A stretch of DNA of 64,000 nucleotides from a virus: positions 1 through 64,000 of IMG/VR virus record IMGVR_UViG_3300037470_000672; one strand, given 5' to 3'. The translations under genes were made by a program, and so were the position numbers. The notes beneath the pieces are model-generated. The model was not told where the DNA came from, did no database searches, and saw only the letters and a program-made list of their open reading frames with translations. Of the stretch, positions 4,235 to 45,040 are shown piece by piece. How positions within the stretch are numbered: the stretch's first letter is position 1; each line of letters begins with the position of its first letter.

Positions 4235-4235
4235 A

Positions 4236-18684: not shown

Positions 18685-19122
18685 GGTCCAGTCTCCCCGG
18701 CGGCAAGGAGGGCACGCGCCCTGGCGCGCTCGCGGTCCATATACTCCCCTCGGCGCGTGCCCTCGTCGCCGAGGCTCCCCTCCGCCAGCCACACCGAGCA
18801 ATAGCCGACGCCGCGCAGCTCGGCGGTCTCGTCGGGGAGCCGCGCATGGCGCGACGCTATGGGGGCTGTGGCGATATACCCGACTGGCCAACCCCGTACG
18901 TAGCGCACGATCGGCGCGTACAGGCTCGGAGGGGCGGCAGAGGTACAGGGCGTCATTACTCTTCCTCCTCCCCCTAGGTTGAAAGGGTGTCGTTGAGGGT
19001 GGGGTCGGAAAAAATCTTGCCACATGCGGGCGGATTTTTGTACTGGTACGTATAGCCTATGTATATGAAATATATGAGGTTTATGGTTTGAGTTGCTCTC
19101 GCTCGATCTCTGTATGCGTGCG

Positions 19123-19851: not shown

Positions 19852-19891
19852 GAGGGGGTGACTCCTCTACTTTTCCCGATTTGGGTTTGGT

Positions 19892-21175
19892 CTAGAGCTT
19901 TCGCAGCTCTCCGATTTCGATTTGGTCTATGACCTTTCGCAGCTTTTTCTGCGTCGACAGCAGCAAAGGGGCGAGCGATGGGTCGTCTTTGACCAGATCT
20001 TGCAGCTTTCTGACGATGCCTCTGATTTTTTTGATCTTGTTCTTCAGATCTTGTCCTCCCCCTCGGTGCTGCTTACGAGCTTCCTCGAAGGGGGTCTTTT
20101 GAAGCTGGTCGATCTGTTGGGCGAGCTGCTTGGCTTCTTCGTGCGCGCCCTTGCCTATCTCGGCGAAGGGGGCCAGCAGTTCATCCAGCTTGTGTAGCCA
20201 ATGTTCGACCTTCATTTGCTTTTTGAGGGTCAGGTAGCGCTTTTGGATCTTTTTGCCGGTGGCGCTCATGCGAGGGGAGACACTTGTGGCTGTGTCTTTG
20301 AGATCGCCGAGAGGTACATCGGGAAACTCCTTGTGGAGTTTCTTCCAAAGGGCGTCCGTATTGGCTTCGTCCAGGTCTCCGCCTGTGATGACGGGACTGT
20401 TTTGAGGGATCTGCGGCGGCTTCCAAGGGTCTCCCTGGGGCTGGCACACAACAACACCCAGTTCCTCCATGAGATCAAGAAACTCGGGCAGCCCCGCGTC
20501 TTCCTTGAATTCCTTGGCGAGGGCGGTGGCGACCTTGGTGGCAACCAGCGACCACTCCCGGTAGGGGAGGAACCACGACTTCTTGGTGCCGTTAAACGAG
20601 AAGCCGTGCTTCTTGAGCACCTCCTTGGCGGCGAAGGTGCCCTTGCCCTTGAGATGGACGATGGGCTCAGCGGCCGGCCCCCACTTCTTGGGCCACTCGA
20701 CCTCGACGTCCAGGCCGAGGGAAGAAAGCCAATTGTTACGACGCAGTTCATGGTCGATCTTGCGCATCCGCTCGCGCATGTCCTTGGGGGTCTGCTTGAG
20801 CCCCTCGTTGTGCTTGCGCACCTCTTCGTTGTGGTCGTCGGCCATCTTCTTGAGGACGGCATGCGCCTTGTCCACCAGGGCCTTGTGCGCCGCTGTCTTC
20901 TGGGTATGCCCAAAGGCGGGCACAGAAACACTGTACTCCCAGGTCTTGGCGCCGCTGTTCCAGCGCAGGCCCATGCGCTTGAGCTTGGGGTTCCATTCCA
21001 TGGGCGCGCCGTGGACAGACAGCACGTAGTTGTTGGACGTGCGCTGGGTGCCCCCGAAATCCCCGAGGTCTTGGTACTTCACCGTTACTGGTTGTTTGGT
21101 AACCAACTCTTTTCGCTCGGTCAGAGCGATGACAGTCTCGTTGAGGCTGAAGAGGAGGGAAGCAGCGCTGGTCAT
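19892..21175 (-). CDS. Hypothetical protein, 427 aa, with two related short domains
   Basis: VHGAPMEWNPKLKRMGLRWNSGAKTW and LKGKGTFAAKEVLKKHGFSFNGTKKSW resemble HARP/DUF5710-like modules. Confidence 0.65.
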   Translation of the reverse strand: MTSAASLLFSLNETVIALTERKELVTKQPVTVKYQDLGDFGGTQRTSNNYVLSVHGAPMEWNPKLKRMGLRWNSGAKTWEYSVSVPAFGHTQKTAAHKALVDKAHAVLKKMADDHNEEVRKHNEGLKQTPKDMRERMRKIDHELRRNNWLSSLGLDVEVEWPKKWGPAAEPIVHLKGKGTFAAKEVLKKHGFSFNGTKKSWFLPYREWSLVATKVATALAKEFKEDAGLPEFLDLMEELGVVVCQPQGDPWKPPQIPQNSPVITGGDLDEANTDALWKKLHKEFPDVPLGDLKDTATSVSPRMSATGKKIQKRYLTLKKQMKVEHWLHKLDELLAPFAEIGKGAHEEAKQLAQQIDQLQKTPFEEARKQHRGGGQDLKNKIKKIRGIVRKLQDLVKDDPSLAPLLLSTQKKLRKVIDQIEIGELRKL

Positions 21176-22432
21176 CGGTACGGGTCCTTCCCCTGATGAG
21201 GGAGCACAGTCTTGGATGTGGTCTGTTTTGGGCGTGGTACAGGGCGCGCCTGCTGTTTGGATGTGGCGGTGGGGCTGTTCCCTTGCTTACCCCGTCTGGT
21301 CTGGCGCCAATACTCCGCTGCCCGGAAGTCCCCGCGCACGACGGCGGCGGCCTCCCTCTTCTTGCAGAGGACCGCGTCTACTTCTGCGATGGGGGCGCCC
21401 CAGTCCTGAGATGAGAGATTAGGGGTGGTCAGGTCCAGGTAGTTCTGGAGCTTGAGCGCCCATATCTCGTAGACCGGTCCCTGTGGGTTTGCGTAGGGCC
21501 AGTCCGTCATGATGCGGTCCAACTCGGTGTAGAGGGGCGCGTGTTCGCCCAGTACCCCTACCCCGGAGACGGCGGAGACAGCTTCTTCCCCCATCACCCG
21601 CGCTCTTTCTTTGGGAGGAGGCTTCCTGCTCAGCCGGCTGAGCTTGGTGGCGGCGGTCTCTATGCTTCCGATGGACGCATCAGGCGCTCCTGACGATCTG
21701 AACAGGTCAGCAAGGGCGTAGAGGAGCTTCACCCCTACATCGAAGGCTTTTGGCTGGTCGGCCTTACGTAGCTGCCCAAGGTCTTTGGCGAGAGACATCA
21801 CGCGCCCCATGTCCCGCTGAAGGCTCCGCGCTACCGGCCCGGGCGCGTCCTCGCGGCGCATAGACCCGCGCTTGGTGTTCTGTAGGCCGTGGGGGTTGCC
21901 GGTTTCTCCACCAGTGTTCCCCGTGGAACCCCCGTTACCTGTTCCCCCATTCGTTGCGCCGTTGGTGGGGGCGCTGTTGCCATTGGGGGGCGGCGGCTCT
22001 TCTGCCGGTGCTTCTTTCTTGACCCGCACGACTCGGGACCCGACGAAACTCGGCCCCCAGCCATAGCGCTGCTGGCGGAGCTTCTCACGGCACCGGTCGA
22101 GCTTCCTACGCAGGGAAGTAGTTTCAGACACGGGACAAAAAATCCTTAAGGGCTTGCTTCTGACGCGCGGTCAGGTGGGCGAGAGGCGCTGGCGGTGCAT
22201 TCTCCATGTAGAAGCGCTGGACGGAGCGTGCGAGGCGTGTGAACTCCTCAGCAGTGCTCTTGGGGTCGTCTGCTCCCAGGTCCGCGAATCCTTGCTTGAG
22301 CAAGTGCTCTGCGCCTTCTACATCCCCATCGCGAAAGAACTCCCGGATGAGCGCCTGGACCGCAGGGGTCGTGGCTCGCGGCTCGGGCGCGAGCTGCTCC
22401 AAGAGATTTCGGCGGGTATCGGGGAGGGGCAT
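21172..22432 (-). other. Two hypothetical ORFs (21172-22131, 22124-22432)
   Basis: Overlapping start and stop codons with their neighbours. Confidence 0.65.
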
Positions 22433-29803: not shown

Positions 29804-32800
29804 TCAAGCCCCTCTTGCGGAACTCTCTGCTGCGCAGACGTACAAGCCCCCACCGGCTGCGAAGACTGCCGAAAACACCCCAACAGGGGGCGCCCCTGCG
29901 GCCGGAAATACTTCCTCGACAATGGCAACGATCAAGCTCCTCGGCACCACTCCTCGTGCTACCGGCTTTTGGCCCTGGGCGCGAATAGCGTCCCAGTCGT
30001 GCCCGGGTATGAGGAGGTCAACGAGGGTCGTCCACGCCGGGTCGTCGACGTCTATGCAGACGACACAGAAAGCGCCGCCCTCTTCCTGCGCCTTCTGGGC
30101 AGATCTTTGTTCCAGCTCTACCAAGCGTGCTCGGTTGGCTTGAAAGAACTCCCACCTCTGTATGTCGGTGATACCGAAGCCGTCCTTGGGAAGGTAAGCC
30201 ACAGGCTCGCCGTCATCGTTGACGTAGACCTCACGGGCGTCTTTGGGGATGTCGGTCACACCGCCTCCCGCACAGCCTCGGGCTTCCAGTCCCGGCCGCC
30301 GTACTTGCGCCGCCGCTTCAATGTGCTCGTCACCAGGTTCCCCACAGCGTCCTCGATGGACGCCGCCGGCCCGTAGTAGCCGTGGGTGGCGTCCTCGCCG
30401 CAGTCCCAGGAGTTTTCCCCCTTACCGGGGAAGGGGACGGGGTCCGTCATGTCGATGTCGACGGCGGTCCATTGTTGCTTGGCAGGCCACCACGGCCAGC
30501 GCTTGCGCTTGCGCTTGCGACCGCGGACCTTGAGCGTTGCTGTCCCGGCGTAGTTGGCTTCCGGCATCGGAACGGTGATGGGCTCGGTGTGGAGCACCAT
30601 GTCTTCGAGCTTCGTGCGCCCGAAAACCGTGTCCAGTGGATACCAATTGAAGCGGCGGCGGTACTTGGACCAAAAGGAGACACGGTTCCGGGATTCGGCA
30701 TCGTAGGCCCACAACGAGACCCAAATCGCCCAGTGGTGGATGGAGAACCTCAGATCGTACCAGTCGTACGTGTTGTGGAGCTTGCGCAGCGCACGCAGAT
30801 CGATGCAGAACCACAGCGAGATCGGCGGAAAGGCGAAGTGGAAGCAGAACCCGTCCTCGCAGTTGACACTCACACCGGCGCCACATGAGCGAGACCATAG
30901 GTTCCACTCCCAGCGGAGATTGAGCCAGCCGCCCCCGACCCTTTTACCGAAGGTCGCCCAAGCACGGCCGTGACGGAGGATGGACCCAGACGCCTTGAAG
31001 CCCCTGTCTCCGGGCTTCTGGTTGAGGTTCTGGTGGTGGCCGTGGATGCTGATGAGAGCGAGCAAGCGCCAGATCATGAGAGAACCCCCTTGGCGACAAC
31101 GCGGTCGCCCTCGATCAGCTCGAAGGTGCGACGCGGAACCATCAAATCGTGGTCCCCCTTGTCCGAGAGGAACGCCACGCGCGCGGTGACCTCCTCACCG
31201 CGCACCTCTTCGATGTCGACGACGAGGCCCCACTTGGCAGGTTTGCCGCCGATGCGCGCGAGCGCGACGTAGCGCCCATCAGGCACGGACCGTAGGAAGC
31301 GGATGGTGGCGAGATAGGTACGTTGAGGCTTGGTCGTGCCGTAGGTGTAGTCCAGGAGGAAGAGGACGCCGGTCGGCCCAGGCATCGGTTGGACAGATAT
31401 CAACTCGTGCGCGAAGGTACGTTGGGTCTTGTTCCAGTCCTTGACGTCCGCCGGATCGAGGTCGAACCCGCGAAGTTTGGCCCAAGCCTGTAAATGCTCC
31501 AGGATGTCCGAGCTGATGTGCTTGGCACCAACAGTGAGCGGCGGGTCGAGCGACGTCAGGTAGGCGGCGAAGTCGAAGAGGGCTCCGGCGACGGCGGGCT
31601 GGTTCATGAGGGGTCCTCCAAAGCATCGAGCACAGACGCCCGGTACAAGGTAGCGGTGCGATGCGCACGCCCTCCGTCACCTTTGTCGGTGACGGTCACC
31701 GTGCCGGCGCAGCCCTTCTGCGTCAACAAGTCGATGAGGGGCTTGAGGTGGTCTCGGATGCGGCGGATGCGCGCCGTCAGCGCGTCGCACTCCTGAGCGA
31801 ACGGGAGCAATGAGCGGAGCATCTTCTTGCCACTGGGCTCAGTGATGGGGTGGCTTGTGATCTTGGCCAAGTGCTCACGAACCTGCTCCAGCGCACCCAT
31901 CGAGGCCATCGACTCCAGTTGAATAAAGATTCCCATCGCCATCTTGGCAACTTGGCCGTTCTCGGTGTCCTTGAGCATGTCGCGCATCTTGTCGCGCTCG
32001 TCTTCGAGCTTCTCCTCACGGCGCTGTGACTGCTTGAGCGCCATCTCCAGTTTCTCCAGGTTTTCCTGCCACTGCTCAACAGCGCGTGCGTGAGCTTGGA
32101 CTTCCTCTCGGAGGTTCTGCGCGTCGTCCGGCGGTAACCACCCGGCGTTCAGCAGGTGCCTGTAGGAACCGGTGTACCACTGGCTCGGGTCGCCGGTGTA
32201 GACCGGGATGTCGGTCATAGGTGAGAGCCCTGCAAGCCGAAAGGAAGGCTTGTGCCTAGAGGCAACACCCACAGGTGGTACCAGTTCTGCTGGTCAACGA
32301 CTTCATCGTCGGGTGGGTAGATTTCGACTCCCACCCGTTCGGCGCCGTCGGGGAGCAGCTCGCGCTTGATCTGTTGAAGGGTTGCCCACGATCGGATCGG
32401 TTTTCGGTCCGCGCGCCGGATGGCCAAACGTTCGACGAGTCCCCAGTCGGTGTCGTGTTCGCACAACAGGACTTCGTAGTGGTTGTTGTACCAGGCGCGT
32501 GTGACGGAGGAGAGTCCGGCGGCGGGGATGCGGACCTCATTGTTGGCAGCGGAGTCGAGCGCCAAGACCTCACCAATCCGGGCATGGACATCAGGGAGTT
32601 CTGTCCAGCCTCCCACAGGGCCTCGCAGCAACCGCACGCCGACGGCGTCCGCCTTCCTGGCGGCTTTCTTCATCTGGCGGCGCTGTGCTCGGCTGCTCAT
32701 TGATGGGGTCTGCCCGTACGGCTCAGCGGTTCTTCTTACGCGCAGCCTTCTGCGCCTTGCGGCGTTTCTTGCGCTTCGCCTGGTGGTCGGCCGGAAGTCG

Positions 32801-33650
32801 GCGAATCGTGACCTTCTTGTTCTCGGGATTGTGTACGGCTTTGAGGATCTGCTCGTCGGTCGGGTCAAACGTTTCGATCTCTTCCCCGCTGTAACGCTGC
32901 TCTTGCATCAGACTTCCACCATCTCAGCATCCTCCGCCACAAACCAGTCCGGCAGCAGGTTGTGCTTCTCCAGCCACTGGTTGACGACTTGGTTGACAAC
33001 CTCTTCCAGCTCCCCCTGTTTCTCGTGGGAGACGGCATCGAGCCAGGAGTGGTCTGGAAGAGCCCCCTCCGAGTCGTACATGTTGTCGGCGAGGACATCG
33101 AGTATCCATTCACCGTGGAGCTTGGGGACGCGGGGCTTGCGACACCTACCCACAGGCTCGACTCCTCTCCGTTCTCACGGAGGTACGGCACATAGCTCCG
33201 CGGAAGACCAGCGTCCAGGCGCGCTTCTCATGCAGGGGAACCTTAGTTTTTGCGCGGACGCGGGTCTTACGAGCCTCCTGCGCCTGCTTCTGTTTGGCTC
33301 GCCACGCCTTGCGGTGCTCGCGCCGCTGTTCCTTGGTCATGGCGTTGAGCTTGTTGCGGCGGGCGGTCTTGCCGTTGGGTCGGCCTACCTCGCCGCGCTC
33401 CCCTCTGGTGAACACGACGGGCTCGTTGTCTTCGCTCACAGGTTCTTCTCCTTCAGTCTTCGACGGCTTGGAAGCCCTCTTCGCGTTCCAGCGCTTCGTT
33501 GATGTAGGTGCGGATCTTCTTCAGATCGCTGACCTTGGTAGCCCCGCCCTTTTTGCCGGCGCGCCACAGGTACTTGAGCGCGTTGCCCAGGTAGAAGTCG
33601 AACCGCTGAAGCAGCGTACGAGCCTGCTGGAGCCAGAGGAAGTTGCTCAT
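29804..33650 (-). other. Run of hypothetical phage ORFs (29804-30259, 30256-31077, 31074-31607, 31604-32218, 32215-32700, 32723-32908, 32908-33153, 33146-33439)
   Basis: Chained 4-bp start/stop overlaps; no confident family assignment. Confidence 0.65.
33453..33650 (-). CDS. DUF3310-like short protein
   Basis: FYLGNALKYLWRAGKKG...DLKK motif. Confidence 0.75.
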   Translation of the reverse strand: MSNFLWLQQARTLLQRFDFYLGNALKYLWRAGKKGGATKVSDLKKIRTYINEALEREEGFQAVED

Positions 33651-33795
33651 GTCCCCTTTCGGTACTTCCGGCCGCAGAATTCACAACGGCCGGTGTGGGG
33701 GTTCCACTGGCGGTTGCGCAGATCGCAGTCGCACGGCTCGTCCTTGATGCGGGTAGGTTTTACCGGCGGAGGGTTGGTCTCGCTCATCGCTTCGC

Positions 33796-33824
33796 ACTAT
33801 AGACTCGGAACGCTTTCTTGACAA
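33796..33824 (-). promoter_or_regulatory. Sigma70-type promoter
   Basis: TTGTCA-17-TATAGT. Confidence 0.7.
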
Positions 33825-33870
33825 GGCGAAAAGCACCTACTCACCTCAGCCGCCGATCTTGCCCGTACCA

Positions 33871-33906
33871 GTCTCGGAATTTCAAAGATCCGAGCATCCG
33901 TTCACC
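33871..33906 (-). CRISPR. Solitary CRISPR repeat
   Basis: GTCTCGGAATTTCAAAGATCCGAGCATCCGTTCACC, 40 nt past the stop of 33947-34174. Confidence 0.9.
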
Positions 33907-33946
33907 GTGAAAACGGCGCCACAGAGGCGGGTGGCAGGACAACCAA

Positions 33947-34174
33947 CTAGGCGGCTGAGGGCGGAGTGAAGCCAGGGTCTGTCGGCTCCCCCGCAAGCCC
34001 CTCCAAGAGGACGAGCTTGCCGTCCTTCTCGGAGAAGACTTGCTCAGCCTCGGCCGCTACCTCGTGAGCAGTAACCGCCAGCATCTTCAGCCGGGACAGT
34101 CCAGGCTGAATGGCGCCCTCACGGCGGAGCAACTCGGCGAATGTGAGCGCCTGAAGCATCTCTTGGCGGGTCAC
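33947..34174 (-). CDS. Hypothetical protein, 75 aa
   Basis: GTG start overlapping the stop of the upstream ORF. Confidence 0.6.
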   Translation of the reverse strand: MTRQEMLQALTFAELLRREGAIQPGLSRLKMLAVTAHEVAAEAEQVFSEKDGKLVLLEGLAGEPTDPGFTPPSAA

Positions 34175-34323
34175 TGATCGTCATCCTCGTCGTCTGCCGG
34201 CGAAGGCTTCTGCCGCTTCTGCTTCTTGGGGTCAGCCTCCTTGGCGTCTTCGGTCAAGGGCTTCCCGCTTGGGTAGGGCATGTCCTCGGTGATCATTTCG
34301 CCACTGGGTCTGGGCTGGACCAT
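34171..34323 (-). CDS. Hypothetical protein, 50 aa (not in the ORF track)
   Basis: GGAGG-6nt-ATG; MVQPRPSGEM...SPADDEDDDQ; its stop overlaps the next start. Confidence 0.6.
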   Translation of the reverse strand: MVQPRPSGEMITEDMPYPSGKPLTEDAKEADPKKQKRQKPSPADDEDDDQ

Positions 34324-34345
34324 CGAATCCTCCGTAGTTGTCCTG

Positions 34346-34381
34346 GTCTCGGAATTTCAAGGACCTGAGCATCCACTCAAG
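34346..34381 (-). CRISPR. Solitary degenerate CRISPR repeat in a gene junction
   Basis: GTCTCGGAATTTCAAGGACCTGAGCATCCACTCAAG; overlaps the stop of 34377-34739 and lies 22 nt upstream of the ATG at 34323. Confidence 0.85.
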
Positions 34382-34739
34382 CGACCGCAGGCATCCAGCG
34401 AAACCCCATGAACTGAAAGATCCTGCGCAGCTCCTTGGTGAGCTTCAAACGGTCTTTCTCCGTCTTCACCTTCACCGTGTGCAGGTATTCACAATCGGTC
34501 CGCGACGGGGCGTCCAGAACCAGGCGCACCGACACCAAGCCGGAGTCCAAGCAGCGCAACTCACCTCGGAAATCTCGGTTCGCAACCAACGTGAAATCGA
34601 CCCCCACACCCGGCAAACCTCGCTTCCGAGTGCACAAAAGGTCCAAGCCGAACATCTCCAGCACAGACAGGAGCCGAGCCATGTTCTGGCCGCTCAGGGC
34701 GTCGCTCTTCAATCTTCGTAAGACCTCAGATAACGGCAC
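34377..34739 (-). CDS. Hypothetical protein, 120 aa
   Basis: ORF between two repeats. Confidence 0.6.
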   Translation of the reverse strand: MPLSEVLRRLKSDALSGQNMARLLSVLEMFGLDLLCTRKRGLPGVGVDFTLVANRDFRGELRCLDSGLVSVRLVLDAPSRTDCEYLHTVKVKTEKDRLKLTKELRRIFQFMGFRWMPAVA

Positions 34740-34899
34740 TTGAGCGTCCTTTGGATAGAAGAGTCAGGCGAGCGGTCCGTAGCGGCCCTGGGGGGTATGG
34801 ATCGCAGACCGCTCGCCTGACCCAAGCGAGACCAATGGGAAGGTAGGCCCCTACAAAGGGTAGTAGCCACCGTTTTGGTTGTCAAATTCGGGGCTTCTC

Positions 34900-35328
34900 T
34901 CATCGAGCCTCGGTCCAAAACTCCCGAGGACTGATCTGCAAAGCCCTAGCTACCGCCTCCAGCGTTGACACCCGGGTATCGTTTTCTGATGCGTTCAGCA
35001 TCCGATAGAGGCTGCTCCGAGACACCCCCGACCGCTGAGCAAGCGTATCGTAGGTCAAACCGAGCCGGCTCATTCGCTTTTTGACGACCTCGGTGAGACA
35101 AAATTGAAAGGCCACAGCCGATATTTTTTGAACCGGTTGTGCTCGCTTACGGGTGTACAGGCGCTTGCGCCGTTGAATAAGGGCCAAGCTCAGGCGCTTC
35201 ATCCCCCCTTCCGTGAACTCCACATCAACTTGACCCGAGGACGGATGAACAGCCCGGACGATGCCGGGCTGTTTGTCGGAGAGGGTCTCCACCTGGGAGC
35301 CTTCTTTGATGGGCCGGTAGCGGGGCAT
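34900..35328 (-). CDS. XRE-family HTH transcriptional regulator with an N-terminal extra domain
   Basis: RMSRLGLTYDTLAQRSGVSRSSLYRMLN...RVSTLEAVARALQI. Confidence 0.85.
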   Translation of the reverse strand: MPRYRPIKEGSQVETLSDKQPGIVRAVHPSSGQVDVEFTEGGMKRLSLALIQRRKRLYTRKRAQPVQKISAVAFQFCLTEVVKKRMSRLGLTYDTLAQRSGVSRSSLYRMLNASENDTRVSTLEAVARALQISPREFWTEAR

Positions 35329-35342
35329 GCTCTCTTGTCTCG

Positions 35343-35378
35343 GTCTCGGAATTTCAAAGATCCGAGCATCTTTTCAAG
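35343..35378 (-). CRISPR. Solitary CRISPR repeat in the 5' UTR of the XRE gene
   Basis: GTCTCGGAATTTCAAAGATCCGAGCATCTTTTCAAG; 14 nt from the ATG at 35328. Confidence 0.92.
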
Positions 35379-35571
35379 ACAACAAACAACTCATCACACG
35401 CCAGCTCGGCCGCGTGCGACCATGTCCGTCCGTCGTCCGGGTCTTCACTTCGCGTGACATACTCCAGCTTCTGGACTGCTTTGAGCAGTTTCCCTAGCTT
35501 GGCGCAGGGACTGCAAAGCGCCAGCGGCGCGTTGCAGTCGCCGCAGAAAGCGCACTCGGACTCGGAGCTGC

Positions 35572-35919
35572 TCATGCGCCGTCTCCGGCGTCTTTGCGGA
35601 TCCAATCCTCCGCAGCCTCCAGCCCGTCGATTGCATCCTTGATGTCCCGATCTTGAATGAAGCGCATCACCTGCTCTTCACCATCTCGCTGCCGCACCCT
35701 GCCGACCGAGACAGAGTACATGCGGCCGTTCTGCCCCTCCGCCGTCTGTACCTGGGTACGAACGTGACCGAAGTCGAAGTTGGTGGCGTTTTGCCACTCC
35801 AAACGGGGGCGCGGTGTACGCGCGGCGTACCCACCCTGCGACCGATCGCTGTACCCCTCCTGTGAGGGGTTCCCGTTGTACGACAGATTACTGTTTTGAC
35901 GGTGGTTCCTCTTGCCCAT
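35572..35919 (-). CDS. Hypothetical protein, 115 aa
   Basis: ORF behind a TTGACA-16-TATAGT promoter at 35957-35984. Confidence 0.65.
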   Translation of the reverse strand: MGKRNHRQNSNLSYNGNPSQEGYSDRSQGGYAARTPRPRLEWQNATNFDFGHVRTQVQTAEGQNGRMYSVSVGRVRQRDGEEQVMRFIQDRDIKDAIDGLEAAEDWIRKDAGDGA

Positions 35920-36413
35920 GGTCTTGTGTTTCCCTCAGTCGTTGGGTGCCGGCTTGACTATACGCAGGACGCTTGGTGTGTCAAGCACGGTACAGGAAAA
36001 ACGCCGTACACGGCGCCAGTTCAGTTTTCTGGATCGGGTTCGGGTGATGCGGAGGGTGGGACCAACTCCTGGAAGCGGGGAGCGATTATTCCTTCCAGCT
36101 CTTCCAATCGCCCATGGACACGTAGTCCTTGGGACACCTGCTCAGCGATGCGCGCCAGACACTTGGTTCGCCCGCAGAAACATAGATTGTTGGGCTCGTC
36201 CGTCATGTGTCTCCCGGAAGGTTCCCATGGTCCACGAAGTGTTGGAGCAATGGAAGCAACACGGCTACTTGCCAGCGCGTCAGAAGCGACCGACGTCGCC
36301 GTCGCGCGCGGCCTCACGCAGCTCCGCGCATGCTTCGAGCTGATCTTCCAACTCCGCGACGCGCTGTTCGAGGTCTTTCACATCGAAAGCGCTCATGCGC
36401 TTCTTTGAGGAGA

Positions 36414-36443
36414 AAGGGGAGCGCTCCGCAGAGCGCTCCCCTT
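36414..36443 (-). terminator. Probable terminator downstream of ardC
   Basis: 13-bp stem AAGGGGAGCGCTC/GAGCGCTCCCCTT with a 4-nt loop. Confidence 0.75.
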
Positions 36444-36452
36444 GGTTAAGGG

Positions 36453-37424
36453 TCATGCCGCCATCAGGCAGGCGTTCTCGGCCTTGAGTCGCTCGATTTC
36501 GGCCTTCATCTCGGCCAGGGTCATCTCGCTGGCTTTCTTGTCCTTGGCCGGCTTGGGCGCCTGCTCCTCGACGAAGGTGAGGATCTCTGCCGTCGCCTTC
36601 TGCACCCGGTCCGCCACCTTCTCGACCTTCTCCGGGTCGGAGCCGCTCCAGTGCGCGACGTAGCCAAAGGAGTAGCTGGCAGAGTCGACCCCCAGCGCGC
36701 TCATGACGCAGTAGGCCACGCTCTCGGCCTCCACCTCGCGGTAGTCCGTGGGGGTGTGGCACAAGCCCGACTCCTTGCTGTGCAGGATGACGTGGGCCAG
36801 CTCGTGGGCCAGGGTCTTGGCCTGCTGTGCCGGGCTGTTGGCCTCGTTGAGCGCGATGCGCTTCTCCGAGAAGACCACGTAGCCGCCCATGCCGTCGATC
36901 ATGCGCTCGGTCTCGATCGTGTAGCCCTTCTTTTGGGCCAGGTTGCTGAGCGCCGTGAACGCGAGGTCAGCGGCCGGAGACGAGCCGTCGAGGGTCTGGA
37001 TGACGTCCAGCTCGGGCAGGTCCGGACCCTCGGTCTGCGCGATGTCGTAGACGAAGACGGTCTTGAAGAATCGAACGAAGCGGTAGGGCTTCTCCTGCCC
37101 GTCTTCCGTCCGCTTACCCCAGCCGAAGATGGGGGCGCGGATGGCGATCTTTTTCTCGCTGGCCTTCACCCGACGACCGGTGCGGGTCTCCCACTGCCGA
37201 CGCCCCATGACGCGCGAGGCGCCCGGACGCTGGAGGTGGATGAGGAGCTGGTTGGTCCAGGAATACTTCCAGAACATCGCCTGGAAGGCGAGGAACTGGA
37301 CCCAGGCGTTCGAACCGATGAGCGCTTCGACGCCGCGCTTCATCTGCTCGACGAGGTCTTTCGCCTCGCTCTCCTTCTGGGCTTTGAACTGCGCCTTCTG
37401 GTCGGGAGTGAACTGCTTGCCCAT
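36453..37424 (-). CDS. ardC: ArdC-family ssDNA-binding antirestriction protein with a metallopeptidase-like C-terminal domain
   Basis: YSWTNQLLIHLQRP...QW...GRRVK.SEK; TLAHELAH; EVEAESVAY. Confidence 0.85.
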   Translation of the reverse strand: MGKQFTPDQKAQFKAQKESEAKDLVEQMKRGVEALIGSNAWVQFLAFQAMFWKYSWTNQLLIHLQRPGASRVMGRRQWETRTGRRVKASEKKIAIRAPIFGWGKRTEDGQEKPYRFVRFFKTVFVYDIAQTEGPDLPELDVIQTLDGSSPAADLAFTALSNLAQKKGYTIETERMIDGMGGYVVFSEKRIALNEANSPAQQAKTLAHELAHVILHSKESGLCHTPTDYREVEAESVAYCVMSALGVDSASYSFGYVAHWSGSDPEKVEKVADRVQKATAEILTFVEEQAPKPAKDKKASEMTLAEMKAEIERLKAENACLMAA

Positions 37425-37438
37425 CGTCTATCCTCCTT

Positions 37439-37496
37439 CAGCGATCCTTCGCTGATCTGATTTGACAATCGTAGTCCTACAGTGTTTGTGTGTCAA
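37439..37496 (-). promoter_or_regulatory. Sigma70-type promoter with hairpin leader (ardC)
   Basis: TTGACA-17-TACGAT; CAGATCAGCGA-AGGA-TCGCTG-AAGGAGG. Confidence 0.88.
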
Positions 37497-38173
37497 GCAC
37501 GGATCCGAAAAAGATCAGATCTGCGTGTGCGCGCGGTCACCGTCCACAAAGAAGAACCCCCGGCGACGCTCACTGCGGCCGGGGGCTTTCCTCTGTGTGT
37601 ACTCACACCAGTTCGGGGCGGTCGTAGCCCCAACGCTTAACCGTAGTCCGTTTGCTCAGATCGGTTCGCCCGATGCGCTGTCTTGGGCACGCTAGCCGCC
37701 CAGCTTGCGATCTGACTGTTGGACCGTGGTTGTCCACCGACAAGGTAGAAGAGCATTGCCCGTAGGACGGCTTCAACTCCTTGTTGGCGGGGTGAAAAGC
37801 TACCTTAAACGCGGTCTTTTTCTGGGTCAAGTGTGGGACACAGATCATTTCACCAGTAGGGTCTCGACCAGTGTGGCAAAGCAGATCGCCTTACTCAGCT
37901 CACGGTGAATGATGATGACCTCGGCGAGGCTCCCCGAAGCTGACTTGACGTGGATGACGGTTCTTCCGTCCGAGTACAGGCGGACCATCGCCTCTACACC
38001 GTCCGTCTGGCTGTGGAAGTTGAGGGAGATGCCGCCACTGGCCGAGTCCGGCAGCGTGCCTGCCTCGTAGGCGTCGGCCAAGGCTTCCAGCTCCTCAACC
38101 TCTTCGCGCTGCGGGTAGAAGCCGGAGCAGAGACTGATCTCGCCAAGGCTCTGTCGGAGGAGGCTGTAGTTGA

Positions 38174-38920
38174 TCATGTGCGCCTCGACACGATCGCTTC
38201 GTAGTCCGGCGCGCCCTGGAACTCGATGCTCACGACCGGGCGCTCCTCTTCCGGCAGACTGCGGATGTAGTCGCGGAGCGCGATGGCGGGTTCGTTGGCG
38301 AGGGTCATACCCTCCTCGGGGATCTTCGCCTCGATGTTCTCCAGGTCGAAGCCGGCCTCCTGGAGGGTCGTGAGGGTCTTCTCGTGCTGCTCCTCTTCGT
38401 GCTTCGCGCGCCACTCTTCCTGCTCGCGACGGAACTCCTCGTCACGCTGCTTCGCGCGCTCTTCCATCGCCTCCAAGGCACCAGCAAAGGTCGTGTCGGC
38501 GCTGAGCCCCACCTTCTCCAGGACGCCGAGCACAGCAGCCTCGCGCAGCACCAGGAGCATCTCGTGCTCGTAGACGTGTTGCGGATCGGCGCCCGTCTCA
38601 GCAGGATCGTAGTCCGGCGGGAAGACCGTGAAAGGCTCCGCGACGAAGATCCCTTGGTCACCCGCGTGGTCCGAGGGTCCGTTAAAAACGGTCGGCTCAC
38701 CAGCGTGCTCCCAGCACGCCTCGTGGTAGAGCGCGGCGCTATCAAGCGTCTCGTCCTCTTCGTGACCGATGTTGCCGTAGCCGTCGTAGGTCCCCTTGCA
38801 AACCGAGCCGTCTGGCAGGATGGCCACGGCCTGCTGCATCCAGTCCCGGTAACCGGCCGCCGAATACCCAGAGCGAATCGACCGGCCACAGCTCTTGCAG
38901 TTCCACGAGAAGAAACCCAT
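38174..38920 (-). CDS. Hypothetical protein, 248 aa
   Basis: MGFFSWNCKSC...GTYDGYG phage-type N-terminus. Confidence 0.75.
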   Translation of the reverse strand: MGFFSWNCKSCGRSIRSGYSAAGYRDWMQQAVAILPDGSVCKGTYDGYGNIGHEEDETLDSAALYHEACWEHAGEPTVFNGPSDHAGDQGIFVAEPFTVFPPDYDPAETGADPQHVYEHEMLLVLREAAVLGVLEKVGLSADTTFAGALEAMEERAKQRDEEFRREQEEWRAKHEEEQHEKTLTTLQEAGFDLENIEAKIPEEGMTLANEPAIALRDYIRSLPEEERPVVSIEFQGAPDYEAIVSRRT

Positions 38921-38932
38921 CTTGACCTCCTT

Positions 38933-38990
38933 CAGCGATTCATCGCCGATCTGTTTTTACAAGCCTAAACGTATTGGATACGTAGGGCAA
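38933..38990 (-). promoter_or_regulatory. Sigma70-type promoter with hairpin leader
   Basis: TTGCCC-17-TAGGCT; CAGATCGGCGA-TGAA-TCGCTG-AAGGAGG. Confidence 0.75.
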
Positions 38991-39041
38991 GCACAAAGCG
39001 GGTGTTTGGAGCCGATCTGTTGTGACGGGCGCCCCACCTAA

Positions 39042-39065
39042 CAATCCGCCCGTACGGGCGGTTTG
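39042..39065. repeat. Dispersed palindrome, copy 4
   Basis: CAATCCGCCCGTACGGGCGGTTTG immediately after the stop of 39070-39279. Confidence 0.95.
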
Positions 39066-39069
39066 GGTC

Positions 39070-39279
39070 CTACTTACCTAGCGTCGCAGCTGGCTTCGCG
39101 GTTGGCTTCTCAGCCAGCTTCTGACCAGCGTCCTTCTGCGGCGTCGGTCCGGCGTCAGTCCTGGGCTCGACCGGCGCCTCTTCTTTGGCGGGAGCCTCAG
39201 CGGATTTGTCCGCCTTGGGGGTGCAGGCGATGAGCGCCAGCGCCGAGAGATTGAGACCGATGAGCAGAATGCGCAGCAT
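39070..39279 (-). CDS. Small predicted lipoprotein
   Basis: Signal peptide ending LALIAC. Confidence 0.7.
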   Translation of the reverse strand: MLRILLIGLNLSALALIACTPKADKSAEAPAKEEAPVEPRTDAGPTPQKDAGQKLAEKPTAKPAATLGK

Positions 39280-39321
39280 GTGGAACCTCCATGCGCCGTC
39301 TGCTCCCTCGGGCCTGGACGT

Positions 39322-39993
39322 TCAAGGGGGTTCACGGAGTCCGATGCGGACCTTGAGCCGGTAGGACAACACCAACGAATTCGTACCGAAATCCTTGAAA
39401 ATCGCCTCGGTGACGAAGCGCAGACCCCCGGGTGTAGTGATGGCGGGAGCGATCTCGTACTCGGTCATCGCCAGGGACAGGGTGGTCACGCCGTCGCCGA
39501 GCAACGCCTCATCCTCGACGTAGGCGATCTCAACAGGGGCCGCGCCCTCGGCGCTCACGTACAAGGTGATGTCCTCAAAGAGGGTGGTGATGCTGCGCTC
39601 GTACTGTTCCACCATCTCGAAGGCGACGAACCTGGCTGATTCGATGTCGTCCATGCTGCGCCCAGCTTCTTGTATCCGGGCACGGATGGCGGCGTTCAGG
39701 GCGAACCCGACCTCGGGCGGGACGGTGTTCTCGGGGTAGAGGGGGTAGTACACATTGGACGCGGCAGGGTGGATGTCGTCGTTGTAGCCGTTGATCTGGA
39801 TCAGCTCATCCATCTCGACCTCGACGTACAGCAGGTCGGGGTCGTCTTCGGCTACGACGCCTTGGCCGGGGCCGGCGTCACTCTGTTGGGTCGGATCTGT
39901 ACCGCAGGCGCAAAAAGCCAGGGCGACGAACGGATAGAAGATAAGGGCTCTGTGCATCGTGGCCTCCTGACAGTACAAGAAGCACGTTAACAC
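39322..39993 (-). CDS. Predicted lipoprotein, myxobacterial style
   Basis: MHRALIFYPFVALAFCACG lipobox-like segment followed by SDAGP. Confidence 0.7.
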   Translation of the reverse strand: MLTCFLYCQEATMHRALIFYPFVALAFCACGTDPTQQSDAGPGQGVVAEDDPDLLYVEVEMDELIQINGYNDDIHPAASNVYYPLYPENTVPPEVGFALNAAIRARIQEAGRSMDDIESARFVAFEMVEQYERSITTLFEDITLYVSAEGAAPVEIAYVEDEALLGDGVTTLSLAMTEYEIAPAITTPGGLRFVTEAIFKDFGTNSLVLSYRLKVRIGLREPP

Positions 39994-40097
39994 ATGCCGT
40001 CAAGGGCGCGAAAGCAAAGGGGAAATCTCTAGAAGTCTCCGGAACGTAAAACCCCTTACCTCAGAGAAAGATGGCGGAGAGCGGTGGTCCTGATCCA

Positions 40098-40133
40098 GTC
40101 TCGGAATTTCAAGGATCCGAGCATCCTTTCAAC
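40098..40133 (-). CRISPR. Solitary CRISPR repeat downstream of the second tRNA cluster
   Basis: Identical to the cas12-adjacent repeat, GTCTCGGAATTTCAAGGATCCGAGCATCCTTTCAAC. Confidence 0.95.
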
Positions 40134-40204
40134 ATCCATAACGCATGCGCGTCCTGACGGGTAGCAGCCGTAGCCCGGGCCTCCCGGGTTCACTCTCCAC
40201 AGGT

Positions 40205-40289
40205 TGGCAGCGGGCAGCGGAATCGAACCACGACGCCTAAGCGCCCTCCAGTTTTCAAGACTGGTCGCTCCCCATGAGCAGTACCCGCT
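40205..40289 (-). tRNA. tRNA-Ser(TGA)
   Basis: Arm CCAGT-CTTGAAA-ACTGG; long variable arm; G73 then CCA. Confidence 0.88.
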
Positions 40290-40297
40290 TCATGTAG

Positions 40298-40389
40298 TGG
40301 TGGCCCGAGCGAGAGTCGAACTCGCATGCCCCTCACAAGGCACCAGGGTCTGAGCCTGGCGTGTCTACCGGAAATTCCACCATCGGGCC
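40298..40389 (-). tRNA. tRNA-Leu(CAG)
   Basis: Arm CCAGG-CTCAGAC-CCTGG; long variable arm; CCA. Confidence 0.9.
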
Positions 40390-40393
40390 ATTG

Positions 40394-40466
40394 TGCGGAC
40401 GGCAGGAGTCGAACCTGCACTGACCGGGATTTGACGCCGGACCCTCTGCCGTTGGGGTACGTCCGC
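40394..40466 (-). tRNA. Atypical tRNA, most likely anticodon CAA (Leu), with a short variable loop
   Basis: Acceptor GCGGACG/CGTCCGC; T arm GCAGG-TTCGACT-CCTGC; anticodon arm CCGGC-GTCAAAT-CCCGG with a C:C pair; no encoded CCA. Confidence 0.7.
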
Positions 40467-42015
40467 TAAGATTTCTCCTTCCAGCAGGCGCACTGAGGCG
40501 GGCGGTGATACGTACACCACGGCTCCGTTAGCCGGGCTTGCGTGACCGTGCTCTCCTGCGCCTCTCCCTGCGCGCAGCTCAATGGGAGGCATGCCGTACT
40601 TGGCGTGCAACAGCAGCTCCTTGCCCTCCGCTTTGGCTACCCGCCGAACCGTCTTCCAGATGCGCGCCGTCTCAGCGCGTAGATCGACCCCAGGGCGTGC
40701 CTCCCAAAGCGCCCGCTTACGCTCCCTGGCCGCCTCCTGGGCGGCGCAGCGTTTGGTCCGCTGCTTGGCTCGGACCCTGGCAGCTCGCTCGGCTTGCGCT
40801 GTCTGACGCGCCTCTTTCTTGGCTTCGATGGTTGGACAAGCGCGCTTCACGAGCCTGCCGGTCTTGTCGGAGCACGGTAGGCAGTAGCGGCGGGTATCGT
40901 CCAGGCGAGGTTTGCTCGGGGCGAGCTTACCCGTCTCGCAGCGGGGGCAGACCCAGCGTCTCACGCGGCGGGCTTCTTCCGGGTCTTGTAGGTGGCCTTG
41001 AGCGTGTCGAACAGGTCGGTGTTGTCGAGCATCGCAACGAAAGCGTCGAGGGATGTGCGGTCGATGGTGACGCGATCGACGGTACCGCTGACGGTGCCCA
41101 TGAGACCGCCGGATACGGGAAGCCCGATTTCTTCGAGGCGCTTGCGCTGCGCGTACCACTCGGTGTTGTAGGTCTCGACACGTGCCATCTTGCGCAAGTG
41201 CTCCTCGCGCGTACGCGCCTGCTTTTCACCCTGCTGCTGAACGTACTCGTCCCAGGGCATCAGGACTTCTTGCGGTCGCGCGACCCCGGAGAGCCACTCT
41301 TTGGGTGCGCCGCGGCACAGAGCGACGTTGATGCCCTTCCCTCCGGACCGTTCCTTGGCCCAGCACCCGCGGATATTTCCCACGTAGCCGTCGAAGCCGA
41401 GAATGATCCCCTTCCTCACGTGGCGGAAACCAGCTTTGGTCGAGATGCCGATGGCGTACGTCTCGCCGATCTGGATGTCTTTGCGTTTCATGCCCAGCTC
41501 ACTCCCAGGTCCAACTCCTGGGCCTTTTGCAGTACCTCATCCAACCGCTCCAGGCGGTCTGTGAGGCGGTTGTCGTCGTAACCGCACAGGATGTGCCGCC
41601 CCGATCGTCGGAGGGCCACGGTGCCGTCCTCCTGGGGAACGGTTCGCATCTCGCCACCGTAGGTCTCGGTCTCGGTGCGGAAGGGGGCGCGGACCTTGTC
41701 CTGGTTGAGCGCGCGCATGATAGCGCGGCGCATGTTGGCCACCTCTTCGGCGGGGACCGACCCGCGCAGATCTGGGTCCGCGTACCCCAGCATCCGGAGA
41801 AGGACCACAGCCGTGCGATTGGCCACATTGAGCGAGCACTCGGACTCGCTGTAGGTCACCCACCCACCCTGACAGGACGCACAACCCCACTCGGGAACGG
41901 GCACGCCGTCCGCCTCAGCGAACTCGCGCGTCTGCTCGCAAAGGAAACAATGCTCCCGTACCTCTTGCTTGGGGCCGTCGGTGGGGCAGAAAGTAACGCT
42001 CATGAGGAACCTCTT

Positions 42016-42071
42016 CAGGGAGTCTTCTCTGATCTGAGCTTGAGTATAGACAACGTAAGTGATCAGAGCAA
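42016..42071 (-). promoter_or_regulatory. Sigma70-type promoter with hairpin leader
   Basis: TTGCTC-17-TATACT; CAGATCAGAGA-AGAC-TCCCTG-AAGAGG. Confidence 0.72.
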
Positions 42072-42137
42072 GCCTGATCTGCGTGTAGGTGGTGTTTTTT
42101 TTTCTACTGCCTCGACGTTCGAGATATTCTACGGCTA

Positions 42138-42173
42138 GTCTCGGAATTTCAAAGATCCGAGCATCTTTTCAAC
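42138..42173 (-). CRISPR. Solitary CRISPR repeat
   Basis: GTCTCGGAATTTCAAAGATCCGAGCATCTTTTCAAC; about 34 nt of unique sequence and then an A9 run follow on the minus strand. Confidence 0.95.
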
Positions 42174-42178
42174 ACACT

Positions 42179-42201
42179 CAATCCGCCCGTACGGGCGGAT
42201 C
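42179..42201. repeat. Dispersed palindrome, copy 5
   Basis: CAATCCGCCCGTACGGGCGGATC, 5 nt from the repeat. Confidence 0.95.
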
Positions 42202-43356
42202 ACATCTCGTCATCGCAGTAGCTCCTCCCCGTCCTTGTAGACGGCGTTCGCCAGCATGTCCGACTCGTTGCGAGGGTAGGAAGAGGTGGAGCTGTTCCAC
42301 GCCTTCTCGCGCAGCGCCTTTTTGCTGGGCGGACGCCAGCGGGGCGGCATCTCGTAAGCGCTGCGCAAGCGGTGGTGGAAGTTCTGCTGCGGCCCCGGAA
42401 TGTCGTGCCGAGCTGCACCAGACCAGGCAAGCTCACCTTTCTTGGCAAGCCAGTCGAGGGCAGCCTTGCGGGAGGATAGCCGCACAACCTTCGTCTCGGG
42501 GTGGCGCAGGTCGGTCGTCTGCTCGATGCCGTAGAAGACGGTCATCAGTTCGTTCTTCCTTTTTTCATCTCGGCCATGAGGAGGTCAGCTTGGACGGCGG
42601 TCTCTTCAGGAGAGAGGTCTGAAGTACCGCCTCGCTGGCAGCGCTCCCCCATGACGATCAACAGCTCCCGGACCTCGTTATCGGTCCATTGCTGAGGCTT
42701 TCCCGCGCGGTAAGTGTCGAGGAGTTTCTCCAGCGCGCTACTCTCCTCATCGGCCGCGAAACCAAGCGCTGCGGCCTCTTCCTGGAGGGAAAGAAGAAGC
42801 TGCACCTCCTGTCGGCGCTTGTCCAGCTCGCACTCCCACGCAACGATCTTGTTGGCAAGCGTCTTCGCCCTTTCTGGGTCCAAACGATCGACGAACCGTC
42901 TGAACCAGAAATCGCTCCGTTTCGTTGCGAGCTTGTCCGGGTATGTCACTCCTGACCCGCCTCAGTAACGATGATCTTGGGCACCGGTTCATCACCACAT
43001 TGGAACGGCTCGCTTGAAGCGATCGGTCGGGTATCCAGCCCCTCCGTGTAGAACTGGTGCCGAATGACTTGGACGACATCGAATGCGGCCCGGTGCGCAT
43101 TGGGGACCAGAGGGTTGTGGATGCTCGGTCCCCCGCTGGCGAAGTATGCCCCGCCCCCCATCCAGTTGACGATCTGGTGAAGCACGTCACGCGCTTCTGC
43201 CAACCCGTCGACGTAGCCCGGAAGATGCTGCGTGTTGTCGAGGACCGCGCTGGCAAGCTGTCCCATGCCCAAACGCGCCAGCGTGTCACACGCTTGCATG
43301 ATGGCACGCGCCTGACCCTCGGTCAGCTCCAGCCGGTACAGCTTCGTCATGCTCTG

Positions 43357-43385
43357 ACTATAGGCGCGCTATGTTATAGCGTCAA
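43357..43385 (-). promoter_or_regulatory. Sigma70-type promoter
   Basis: TTGACG-17-TATAGT. Confidence 0.75.
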
Positions 43386-43467
43386 GCCGGGGCTACCTGA
43401 TCTTGCGTTGTCGGAGGTTGTTCCAGGTTCTATCGGACCACTCCAGCAGGGGCAGGGAAGAAGCTCT

Positions 43468-43503
43468 GTCTCGGAATTTCAAGGATCCGAGCATCCATTT
43501 AAC
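43468..43503 (-). CRISPR. CRISPR repeat downstream of the type IV-B operon; possible decayed partner at 43559-43586
   Basis: GTCTCGGAATTTCAAGGATCCGAGCATCCATTTAAC; 55 nt away is GTCTCGGcgAATTTttGGATCCGAcacc. Confidence 0.9.
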
Positions 43504-43686
43504 CTTTCGCGGTTTCGGTGTCGTACGCGCCCTCAAAGCAGGTAAGTCATCGATCGGCGTCTCGGCGAATTTTTGGATCCGACACCTGCCCCGAGTAGAG
43601 CGCGTACACAGCCCACATCTCAAAAGGAGCCCGCAGAAACTCATCCAAGGAAGCGGCCGTCAGGGTATCAAGTAAAGCATGTGCGT

Positions 43687-44415
43687 TCATACGTGCTTCC
43701 GAAGAAAAGACGAATAGTATTCATTCTCCCATAGCAACCTACCCATACCTCGACCAGGAACACCTCCTACCCGGCATACCCGTAGGCTCTCGCGTGGCCA
43801 ACGGCCGCCACCCAGCATTCCGTAGTTCGGATGGATCGGCAGGTCGTGCTTGGCTAGGTAGGCGTACACGTCCTGTATCTTCCAGTACCCGATCGGTGCC
43901 AGGGTATTGAGGCTGCGTAGGCCGTGCTTCATCATGCGGATCGCTCTGCCGCCCGACTCGTCTCGGCGTATTCCTGACAGGTAGCGAGTGTATGGAAGTT
44001 TCTTGAAACAGCGCAGAAATACCTTGTCGGTCTGCCTATCGATCTCGTTTTCGCTCCCGTCAATACCTGTGTAGTCTGCCAAGACCTCCTGGTAGGGCAT
44101 AGGAAATCTCGTCAGGAACGCGTCCCGGACGATAGCGTTGTATGGGTTCTCTCCTGGCTGCTGGATAATGTGCACGAGAAGGACCTTATCTTGGCAGACT
44201 TCCCAAAGCAGATGTGCGCAGGTGACCGAGTCCTTGCCCCAAGACACGCTGAGGTAGCAAGGGCCGTCCGCCACGAACTCGGAGATTGCGCTCCTGGCCT
44301 GCTCAGCGCGCCGCTGGAAGACAGGAAGGCTGGCGTAGGCGAGGTCGGCTTCGGCCAGGGTAGCCCACATCTCGCGGTCGGCTTGGGTGTGGGAGGGGAC
44401 TGGAATCAGGCCCAC
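43687..44415 (-). CDS. cysH: CysH-like PAPS-reductase-family protein of type IV-B CRISPR-Cas
   Basis: PP-loop YLSVSWGKDS; GIRRDES.GR; LAPIGYWKIQDVYAYL; last gene of the csf operon. Confidence 0.85.
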   Translation of the reverse strand: MGLIPVPSHTQADREMWATLAEADLAYASLPVFQRRAEQARSAISEFVADGPCYLSVSWGKDSVTCAHLLWEVCQDKVLLVHIIQQPGENPYNAIVRDAFLTRFPMPYQEVLADYTGIDGSENEIDRQTDKVFLRCFKKLPYTRYLSGIRRDESGGRAIRMMKHGLRSLNTLAPIGYWKIQDVYAYLAKHDLPIHPNYGMLGGGRWPRESLRVCRVGGVPGRGMGRLLWENEYYSSFLRKHV

Positions 44416-44422
44416 GGAAGCG

Positions 44423-45040
44423 TTACTCCCAGGCGCGGGAGAACTCCCGGTCGCGGAAGGCGTCGGCGAGCCCTGTGATCTGCTTGAGCCGCAAGACTTC
44501 GTCCGGATCCATGCCCAGTTCTTGGCTAATCCGCTCGTTGCTCCAGTGATGTTTGGTCAACGCCGTCACGAGCTTGGCGCTCAGCTCCACCTGATGCGTC
44601 CCACGAGCCAGGTTGTGCCGCACGGTGGACGTCATCCGGTCCTGAACACCCTTGTTCAGCTCCACCAGGGGGATGTAGCCACCCAAAGACTCCCGAATAT
44701 CCTCCCGGTTCTGGATAACGGTAGTGCGATGGAAACCGTCCACCACCACGTAGTCACCGGCATAAGGGTCTTTGGCTGCGACAATGGGCATCGTCACCCC
44801 ATCCTTCCGGATGGAAAATTCCAAAAGCTTCATCTCCGGCGGGGCAACGACGTTGGGGTTGTAATCATTGCCCTTGACCTGCTCAGACGGGACCAGCTTC
44901 ACGCCTGTTACAGGGTGGGGGAGCCCGAGGAATGCTTGGAGTGCTTCGCTGATCTCGTTGAAGACCTTCACACGCTCGTCGAGCGACAAGTCTGCGCTTT
45001 CGGCCAGGGTACGCTTGAACGCTTCCAAGTCATCCCACAT
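44423..45040 (-). CDS. ibrB: IbrB/YbdM-like ParB/Srx-domain protein
   Basis: NDYNPNVVAPPEMKLLEFSIRKDGVTMPIV...VVDGFHR...STVRHNLARGTH. Confidence 0.9.
   Translation of the reverse strand: MWDDLEAFKRTLAESADLSLDERVKVFNEISEALQAFLGLPHPVTGVKLVPSEQVKGNDYNPNVVAPPEMKLLEFSIRKDGVTMPIVAAKDPYAGDYVVVDGFHRTTVIQNREDIRESLGGYIPLVELNKGVQDRMTSTVRHNLARGTHQVELSAKLVTALTKHHWSNERISQELGMDPDEVLRLKQITGLADAFRDREFSRAWE

Follow-up and report, generated by a model that had tools for sequence, protein, structure and literature searches.

A 64,000-nt stretch of viral DNA (the window), comprising the first 64 kb of the single 175,906-bp viral contig IMGVR_UViG_3300037470_000672, was analyzed because three 36-nt repeats punctuate an operon that encodes an XRE-type regulator. 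These repeats are solitary copies of the repeat of a type V-M CRISPR system that the phage itself carries. The genome encodes the cognate effector, Cas12m, and contains sense-strand copies of the repeat handle at gene junctions. It is likely that these solitary repeat units (SRUs) are maintained for Cas12m binding. By analogy with other Cas12m proteins, we also propose, at slightly less than even chances, that Cas12m binds and probably cuts the handles inside phage mRNAs at gene junctions.

This is a large, T4-like phage. Besides a tRNA cluster, its genome contained morphogenesis and replication genes of the T4 type, among them those for a prohead protease, a portal, a tail sheath, a DNA polymerase, and a UvsX-like recombinase. 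About 90% of the window genes were carried on the minus strand. All gene calls were rough ones made in this analysis; the intergenic counts given below used deliberately crude longest open reading frame (ORF) calls.

The phage type V-M system and its solitary repeats

The cas12m gene (56196–57974, minus strand) encoded a protein of 592 aa and was the sole TnpB/Cas12-type gene in the genome. In a phmmer search of the PDB, residues 18–544 of this protein matched Cas12m 23vw_A (E 2.2e-80), and further Cas12m structures (8pm4_A and 23vu_A) were also matched. Pfam analysis of the protein returned Cas12f1-like TNB (E 1.3e-10). Alignment to a Cas12m structure showed that the RuvC motif positions of the phage effector are apparently D, E, and D, whereas the characterized Cas12m enzymes have HDD or NDD.

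Two CRISPR arrays were located in the window. A mini-array directly 3' of cas12m (55991–56172, minus strand) contained three repeats, the last of which was degenerate, and two spacers. Array 1 (3–419, minus strand), downstream of the tRNA cluster, contained six 36-nt repeats with spacers of 37–42 nt and ran on at the other contig end. Read in the direction of cas12m (minus strand), the 36-nt array repeats carried the 3' hairpin CTCGGA/TCCGAG followed by AC. No cas1 or cas2 was found in the genome, and no anti-repeat was found beside the arrays. On this genomic evidence, the phage carries a type V-M system without an adaptation module. Spacer-target searches, aimed at inferring the protospacer adjacent motif (PAM), gave no self-match in the genome and no credible match in GenBank phages, and two spacers had no exact match in IMG/VR. 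The two contig ends (window 1–130 and genome 175767–175906) both lay within array 1; they shared one spacer and differed in the adjacent one, which suggests a circular or permuted genome with array variants in the population.

The 36-nt unit, read on the minus strand, consisted of 5' GTTGAAA, a short purine stretch, the 6-bp stem CTCGGA/TCCGAG with a 10-nt loop, and an AC tail. Placement of the hairpin at the repeat's 3' end is typical of type V. The purines at positions 6–10 were complementary to the first loop nucleotides, which would give a pseudoknot. Comparison of 17 units with the array repeats showed that positions 8–36 were 97% identical and positions 1–7 were 73% identical, while the flanks were random and the 3' boundary was sharp. 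The conserved block was therefore the 3' 29 nt, corresponding to the pseudoknot-plus-hairpin part that is held by Cas12m in the mature CRISPR RNA (crRNA). In Cas12m2–crRNA structures, nucleotides -36 to -30 are disordered or unmodelled and the pre-crRNA is cleaved upstream of the scaffold; MsCas12m and PmCas12m cleave within the repeat, and about 33 nt of it are retained. What the units conserve thus coincides with the ordered portion of the repeat in the Cas12m2–crRNA structures.

The pseudoknot pair 8–21 was G-C in 11 distinct copies, A-U in five, and G-U in three, and was unpaired in none. A pseudoknot strand, a stem of 5–6 bp, a loop of 9–10 nt, and an AC tail were present in all of the 11 repeat types found beside Cas12m homologues of this clade. 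Two other identities of the unit were considered and rejected. As an intrinsic terminator, the 6-bp stem with its 10-nt loop is followed by AC and variable sequence without a U run, and the units were absent from the terminator scan. As a promoter, the loop offers TTGAAA as a -35 candidate, but a -10-like hexamer was found in one unit only (42138), at a poor spacing of 15 nt.

Outside the arrays, the 175.9-kb genome contained 17 good solitary copies and three degenerate ones, giving about 20 in all. The eight good SRUs of the window began at 874, 33871, 34346, 35343, 40098, 42138, 43468, and 62562; the copies at 34346, 120496, 141239, 127873, and 148699 were degenerate. The 29-nt core with up to three mismatches occurred 16 times in the window versus 0 times in 100 shuffles, and shuffled genomes gave 0–1 matches at the loosest threshold. 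When all copies were counted, including those of the arrays, 30 were on the gene strand and one was on the opposite strand. This antisense repeat was a single degenerate copy (62486–62521), located on the 5' side of cas12m at a distance of 4.5 kb, and it pairs with the SRU at 62562.

Fourteen of the 17 cores were fully intergenic, compared with 10.5% expected for a random 29-mer (P ~1e-11, with the crude longest-ORF calls); the overlap of the other three with genes arose only from the choice of the longest start. About nine units ended 10–26 nt 5' of a plausible start codon, and six abutted or contained the stop codon of the upstream gene, so that several units fill nearly the whole intercistronic gap. 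None of the 16 intergenic sigma-70-like promoters was located just upstream of a unit, and two were downstream of units. The pseudo-spacers (first 16, 20, or 26 nt, with 1, 3, or 5 mismatches) had no match elsewhere in the 175.9-kb genome, apart from one chance-level match with three mismatches.

A similar pattern was found in a second, unrelated phage, G001, a complete 109.7-kb IMG/VR phage whose Cas12m was 33% identical to the one described here and whose repeat was unrelated in sequence. It contained one array and seven solitary copies, nearly all of which were intergenic (one overlapped a small predicted ORF). The genome of G001 uses both strands, and its solitary copies followed the direction of the neighboring genes. 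Only the 3' 27 nt of these copies were conserved (89%, versus 42% for the 5' part). Two further phage-like contigs, L017 and L010, had dispersed mini-arrays around their Cas12m genes. In L017 (an ENA contig of 107.9 kb whose Cas12m has 577 aa), over 35 repeat copies were found in region 11700–21300, grouped into many mini-arrays with spacers of 17–25 nt; a GTAGAAT-type element that could be a promoter preceded many of the repeat clusters. In L010 (a 107-kb contig with a 784-aa Cas12m-like gene), mini-arrays were located at 5443–5566, 9785–9955, 12355–12666, and 19049–19121, on both strands, flanking the gene and distant from it, with very short spacers of 14–18 nt.

The repeat pattern of the phage gave 0 matches in IMG/VR, JGI metagenomes, and GTDB genomes, and none of 185,579 species-representative genomes contained the repeat. 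Close relatives were not found by searches with a 323-aa neighbor protein and the prohead protease. BLASTn of 33600–36100 against GenBank phages returned no match. Rfam analysis of 1–5000 and 30000–45000, which covers all three units of the XRE operon, returned tRNAs only.

The XRE operon and the other repeat sites

The three 36-nt repeats of the operon, reported in the first-pass annotation at 33871–33906, 34346–34381, and 35343–35378 on the minus (coding) strand, were confirmed to the base, as were the intervals of 961 and 439 nt between them. The same annotation described a four-gene operon, and this description was too narrow: the unit spans the region from the promoter at 35984–35957 to the promoter at 33824–33796 and contains at least six ORFs, and an internal hairpin may split it.

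All features of the operon were on the minus strand. The upstream promoter, a strong sigma-70-like one, TTGACA-16-TATAGT (35957–35984), agreed at 11 of 12 positions, and the first gene after it was a 115-aa ORF (orf115, 35572–35919). A 73-aa Cys-rich ORF (orf73, 35354–35575) started in an ATGA overlap with the orf115 stop and ended at a TGA inside the SRU at 35343–35378 (repeat positions 23–25); this repeat, already known to lie near a start codon, therefore also overlaps a stop codon. It ended 14 nt before the ATG of the regulator gene, at the distance first noted. The regulator (34900–35328) was a protein of 142 aa with a helix-turn-helix at residues 80–137, and its assignment to the XRE type was borne out by Pfam (HTH_3, E 1.2e-9). 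In the 160-nt gap between this gene and the following 120-aa ORF, there was a strong hairpin of 18–21 bp (34764–34821, z -3.9), preceded by a TTGACA hexamer. The hairpin may be a terminator, an operator, or a regulatory structure, and may split the operon.

The 120-aa ORF (orf120, 34377–34739) had no family match, and no usable indication of its function came from Pfam, PHROGs, or the protein atlas. Its TGA stop was at positions 3–5 of the degenerate SRU at 34346–34381, which was followed by the GGAGG Shine-Dalgarno sequence and, 22 nt past the repeat, the ATG of a 50-aa ORF (orf50, 34171–34323), in agreement with the overlap and order given in the first-pass annotation. A 75-aa ORF (orf75, 33947–34174) had a GTG start overlapping the orf50 stop (GTGA). 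The SRU at 33871–33906 started 40 nt past the orf75 stop, that is, after the last gene as had been stated, and the next promoter followed 46 nt on.

This next promoter, of the sigma-70-like form TTGTCA-17-TATAGT (33796–33824, minus strand; window 33785–33824), ended 8 nt before an ATG at 33787, and a leaderless or near-leaderless mRNA may result. An early-promoter module with the form TTGACA-N16/17-TA..(A/G)T and conserved flanks was repeated at 37432–37500, 38926–38994, and 35957–36000; 16 of the 18 promoter-module sites in the genome were intergenic.

The remaining SRUs of the window, all on the minus strand, were located in various surroundings. The SRU at 874–909 was in the tRNA cluster, 42 nt upstream of a tRNA (758–831, minus strand) that was found by Rfam (39.4 bits) and missed by ARAGORN. 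With the SRU at 40098–40133, which was downstream of tRNA-Ser, two units adjoined tRNA genes. The SRU at 42138–42173 was just 3' of a GC-rich palindrome, and the SRU at 43468–43503 was 83 nt upstream of a promoter. The SRU at 62562–62597 was convergent with the sole plus-strand copy, the degenerate one at 62486–62521; the pair folds as a long hairpin (window 62440–62620, z -6.5) beside a palindrome, at a place where convergent transcription units apparently meet.

A perfectly conserved 16-nt palindrome, CCGCCCGTACGGGCGG, was found at intergenic positions 914, 16450, 23847, 39046, 42183, and 62461 of the window, with 15 copies in the genome. In two cases it was directly 5' of a solitary repeat. 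A role as a terminator or as a binding site for a protein is possible. Outside the window, two repeats 67 nt apart at genome 78460–78562 (L003:14460–14562) formed a one-spacer mini-array, which may be an array in the making; the second repeat may lie within the 5' end of an ORF. The portal gene (genome 128618–132745; L006:4618–8745) encoded 1375 aa with an HNH-endonuclease segment at residues ~200–370, which suggests an inserted homing-type element.

Proposed action of Cas12m and alternative explanations

In the proposed mechanism, which draws on the biochemistry of other Cas12m proteins, Cas12m would recognize the handle in an mRNA as it does in pre-crRNA. It would cut a few nucleotides into the repeat, near its 5' end, so that the operon would be severed at that junction, and would remain bound to the downstream cistron at its 5' end, the 17–20 nt that follow occupying the guide channel. 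At the XRE gene (start codon at +15) and at orf50 (GGAGG at +13, start codon at +23), the ribosome-binding region would then be masked. The downstream cistron would be expected to show repression or a changed stability that depends on Cas12m, and a cut at repeat positions 1–8 would remove the stop codon of orf73, of orf120, and of a 324-aa gene at 142390–143364. Overall, the phage would have put a CRISPR effector to new use in the post-transcriptional control of its own genes.

The first-pass annotation had offered such an action, with Cas12m sitting on or cleaving mRNA hairpins, as one of two options. The general part of that option is favored by the cognate repeat, the sense orientation, the conservation of the handle, the covarying pair, the position at gene junctions, and the recurrence in G001; its further part, an effect on the XRE regulator, is kept as a prediction. 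Direct repeats in the presence of a UvsX-type recombinase would carry a deletion cost, and the persistence of the units argues for a benefit.

Several observations weigh against this proposal. Copy 34346 had two changes in the 5' stem arm, one giving an A.C mismatch and one a G.U pair, and the canonical hairpin was not formed in context. Five units were at unit ends, close to palindromes or promoters, and control of translation would make little sense there. The median intergenic gap was 17 nt, so the proximity to start codons may merely reflect tight gene packing, and this proximity was not seen in G001. The genes downstream of the units had no common functional theme (XRE, UvsX-like recombinase, head-tail adaptor, and unknowns). 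The Rctr197k virus had Cas12m and a large array with no solitary copies. The covariation concerned one pair and possibly few events, and 24 of 500 shuffles reached its score; it is therefore counted as support and not as proof.

The strongest rival, which is nevertheless unlikely, is that the units act as single-repeat guide units. A solitary repeat would make the adjacent phage sequence a guide, and co-infecting relatives without the insert would be bound and silenced. The phage's own copy would be spared, with the repeat end GAC at the PAM position, and the arrangement would resemble the logic of TnpB omega-RNA, in which the flank is the guide. Cas12m needs no trans-activating crRNA (tracrRNA) and uses guides of 17–20 nt, and a type V crRNA needs only the 5' repeat. 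The known Cas12m PAMs are YTN, TTN, or TTV, and because the repeat ends with GAC and not with a YTN-type PAM, self-targeting is not expected. The true short spacers carried by the dispersed mini-arrays of L017 and L010 and the lack of matches of the pseudo-spacers elsewhere in the genome also fit this explanation. However, at the PAM position of an empty site, the 3 nt upstream of a unit, only 2 of 17 units had a sequence fitting YTN; this is roughly what chance would give, and no enrichment was seen. No relative with an empty site was found in the database searches, and Shine-Dalgarno and start-codon sequences would be poorly specific as guides.

It is rather improbable that the units are neutral relics or selfishly spread copies, either decayed mini-arrays or products of recombination that are tolerated between genes and have no present function. 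Degenerate copies exist, and insertions would be expected to survive only between genes; but the 97% conservation of the core against random flanks, with its sharp 3' boundary, the pseudoknot pair that is never broken, and the strand bias of 30 to 1 do not agree with neutrality, nor does the recurrence of the pattern with an unrelated repeat in G001. Decoys of the Racr type, which would soak up a Cas12m belonging to the host or to a rival element, have a precedent in viral solitary repeat units known to act in this way, including against type V-A. They are very improbable here, because they would inhibit the phage's own Cas12m, which is the cognate protein, and because the repeat was in none of the sampled prokaryote genomes. 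Moreover, the units had no promoters of their own and were inside mRNAs, and 17 copies are far above the number usual for Racr loci.

The second option of the first-pass annotation was that the repeats are recombination points bounding exchangeable gene cassettes, in effect gene-sized spacers. Whole genes do lie between the 36-nt direct repeats, a gene for a UvsX-like recombinase is present, and array 1 had variants in spacer content at the two contig ends. No inter-repeat segment was duplicated elsewhere in the genome, however, and a site that acts purely at the DNA level would not be expected to show conservation of the handle alone, sense orientation, or a pseudoknot pair with G.U intermediates. 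This explanation is considered very improbable.

Comparison with known systems and significance

The reference type V-M effectors are MmCas12m2, GoCas12m, MsCas12m, and PmCas12m (PMC10442227, PMC11013384, bioRxiv 10.64898/2026.03.26.714355), and a phage-encoded MvCas12m has been reported (bioRxiv 10.64898/2026.09.14.751636). The first published phage Cas12m was likewise described as a type V-M system without an adaptation module. The characterized Cas12m orthologues bind DNA without cleavage and process their pre-crRNA themselves, and the published systems have no tracrRNA. The phage system resembles them in its homologous effector, its 36-nt repeats with a pseudoknotted 3' hairpin, the lack of adaptation genes, and the small arrays by the gene. 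It differs in having about 20 extra single repeats outside the arrays, between phage genes and in sense orientation; the cited Cas12m papers mention no solitary repeats, and no published description of solitary Cas12m repeats between phage genes was found in the literature.

Racr units (Faure 2019; Camara-Wilpert 2023, PMC10651486) are, like the SRUs, single CRISPR repeats in viral DNA that imitate the crRNA handle and for which binding to a Cas protein is expected. Racr units mimic a host repeat, usually have their own promoter, are located near acr genes, and occur in viruses without a cognate cas gene, whereas in this phage the cognate cas12m and arrays were in the same genome, and 17–20 units without their own promoter were embedded in operons. 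In CreA/CreTA, CreR, and crlRNAs (for example, bioRxiv 10.1101/2024.12.27.630466), degenerate repeat units likewise employ a Cas effector in a regulatory and not an immune task. There, a partially matching pseudo-spacer next to a PAM guides the effector to a promoter; since no partial match of the pseudo-spacers was found elsewhere in the phage genome, the action of Cas12m is proposed to be on the RNA that carries the unit.

By analogy only, the closest functional counterpart of the proposed mechanism is RegB of T4, a protein unrelated to Cas12m. RegB, a sequence-specific endoribonuclease, reprograms expression by acting in or beside the ribosome-binding sites that lie between early genes; it recognizes GGAG with the help of ribosomal protein S1. 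The omega-RNA of TnpB, from the IS200/IS605 ancestors of Cas12, consists of a single scaffold and then flanking DNA as the guide. The phage units differ from it in that they are only 36 nt long and that no transposon ends or TnpA were present.

It may further be, although we hold this somewhat more tentatively than the action in this one phage, that a whole clade of large phages has turned Cas12m inward, with about 20 handles serving as operon punctuation at which mRNAs are cut or masked, besides any role against rivals. If Cas12m does act on the units, nature would provide an example of a CRISPR effector regulating the mRNAs of the genome that encodes it, with sites set by the repeat and not by the spacer, and a compact natural design for protein-controlled operon processing. 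It would add a function of viral CRISPR beyond counter-defence and virus–virus competition, and would help to account for the persistence of non-cutting Cas12m systems in phages without adaptation genes and with few spacers.

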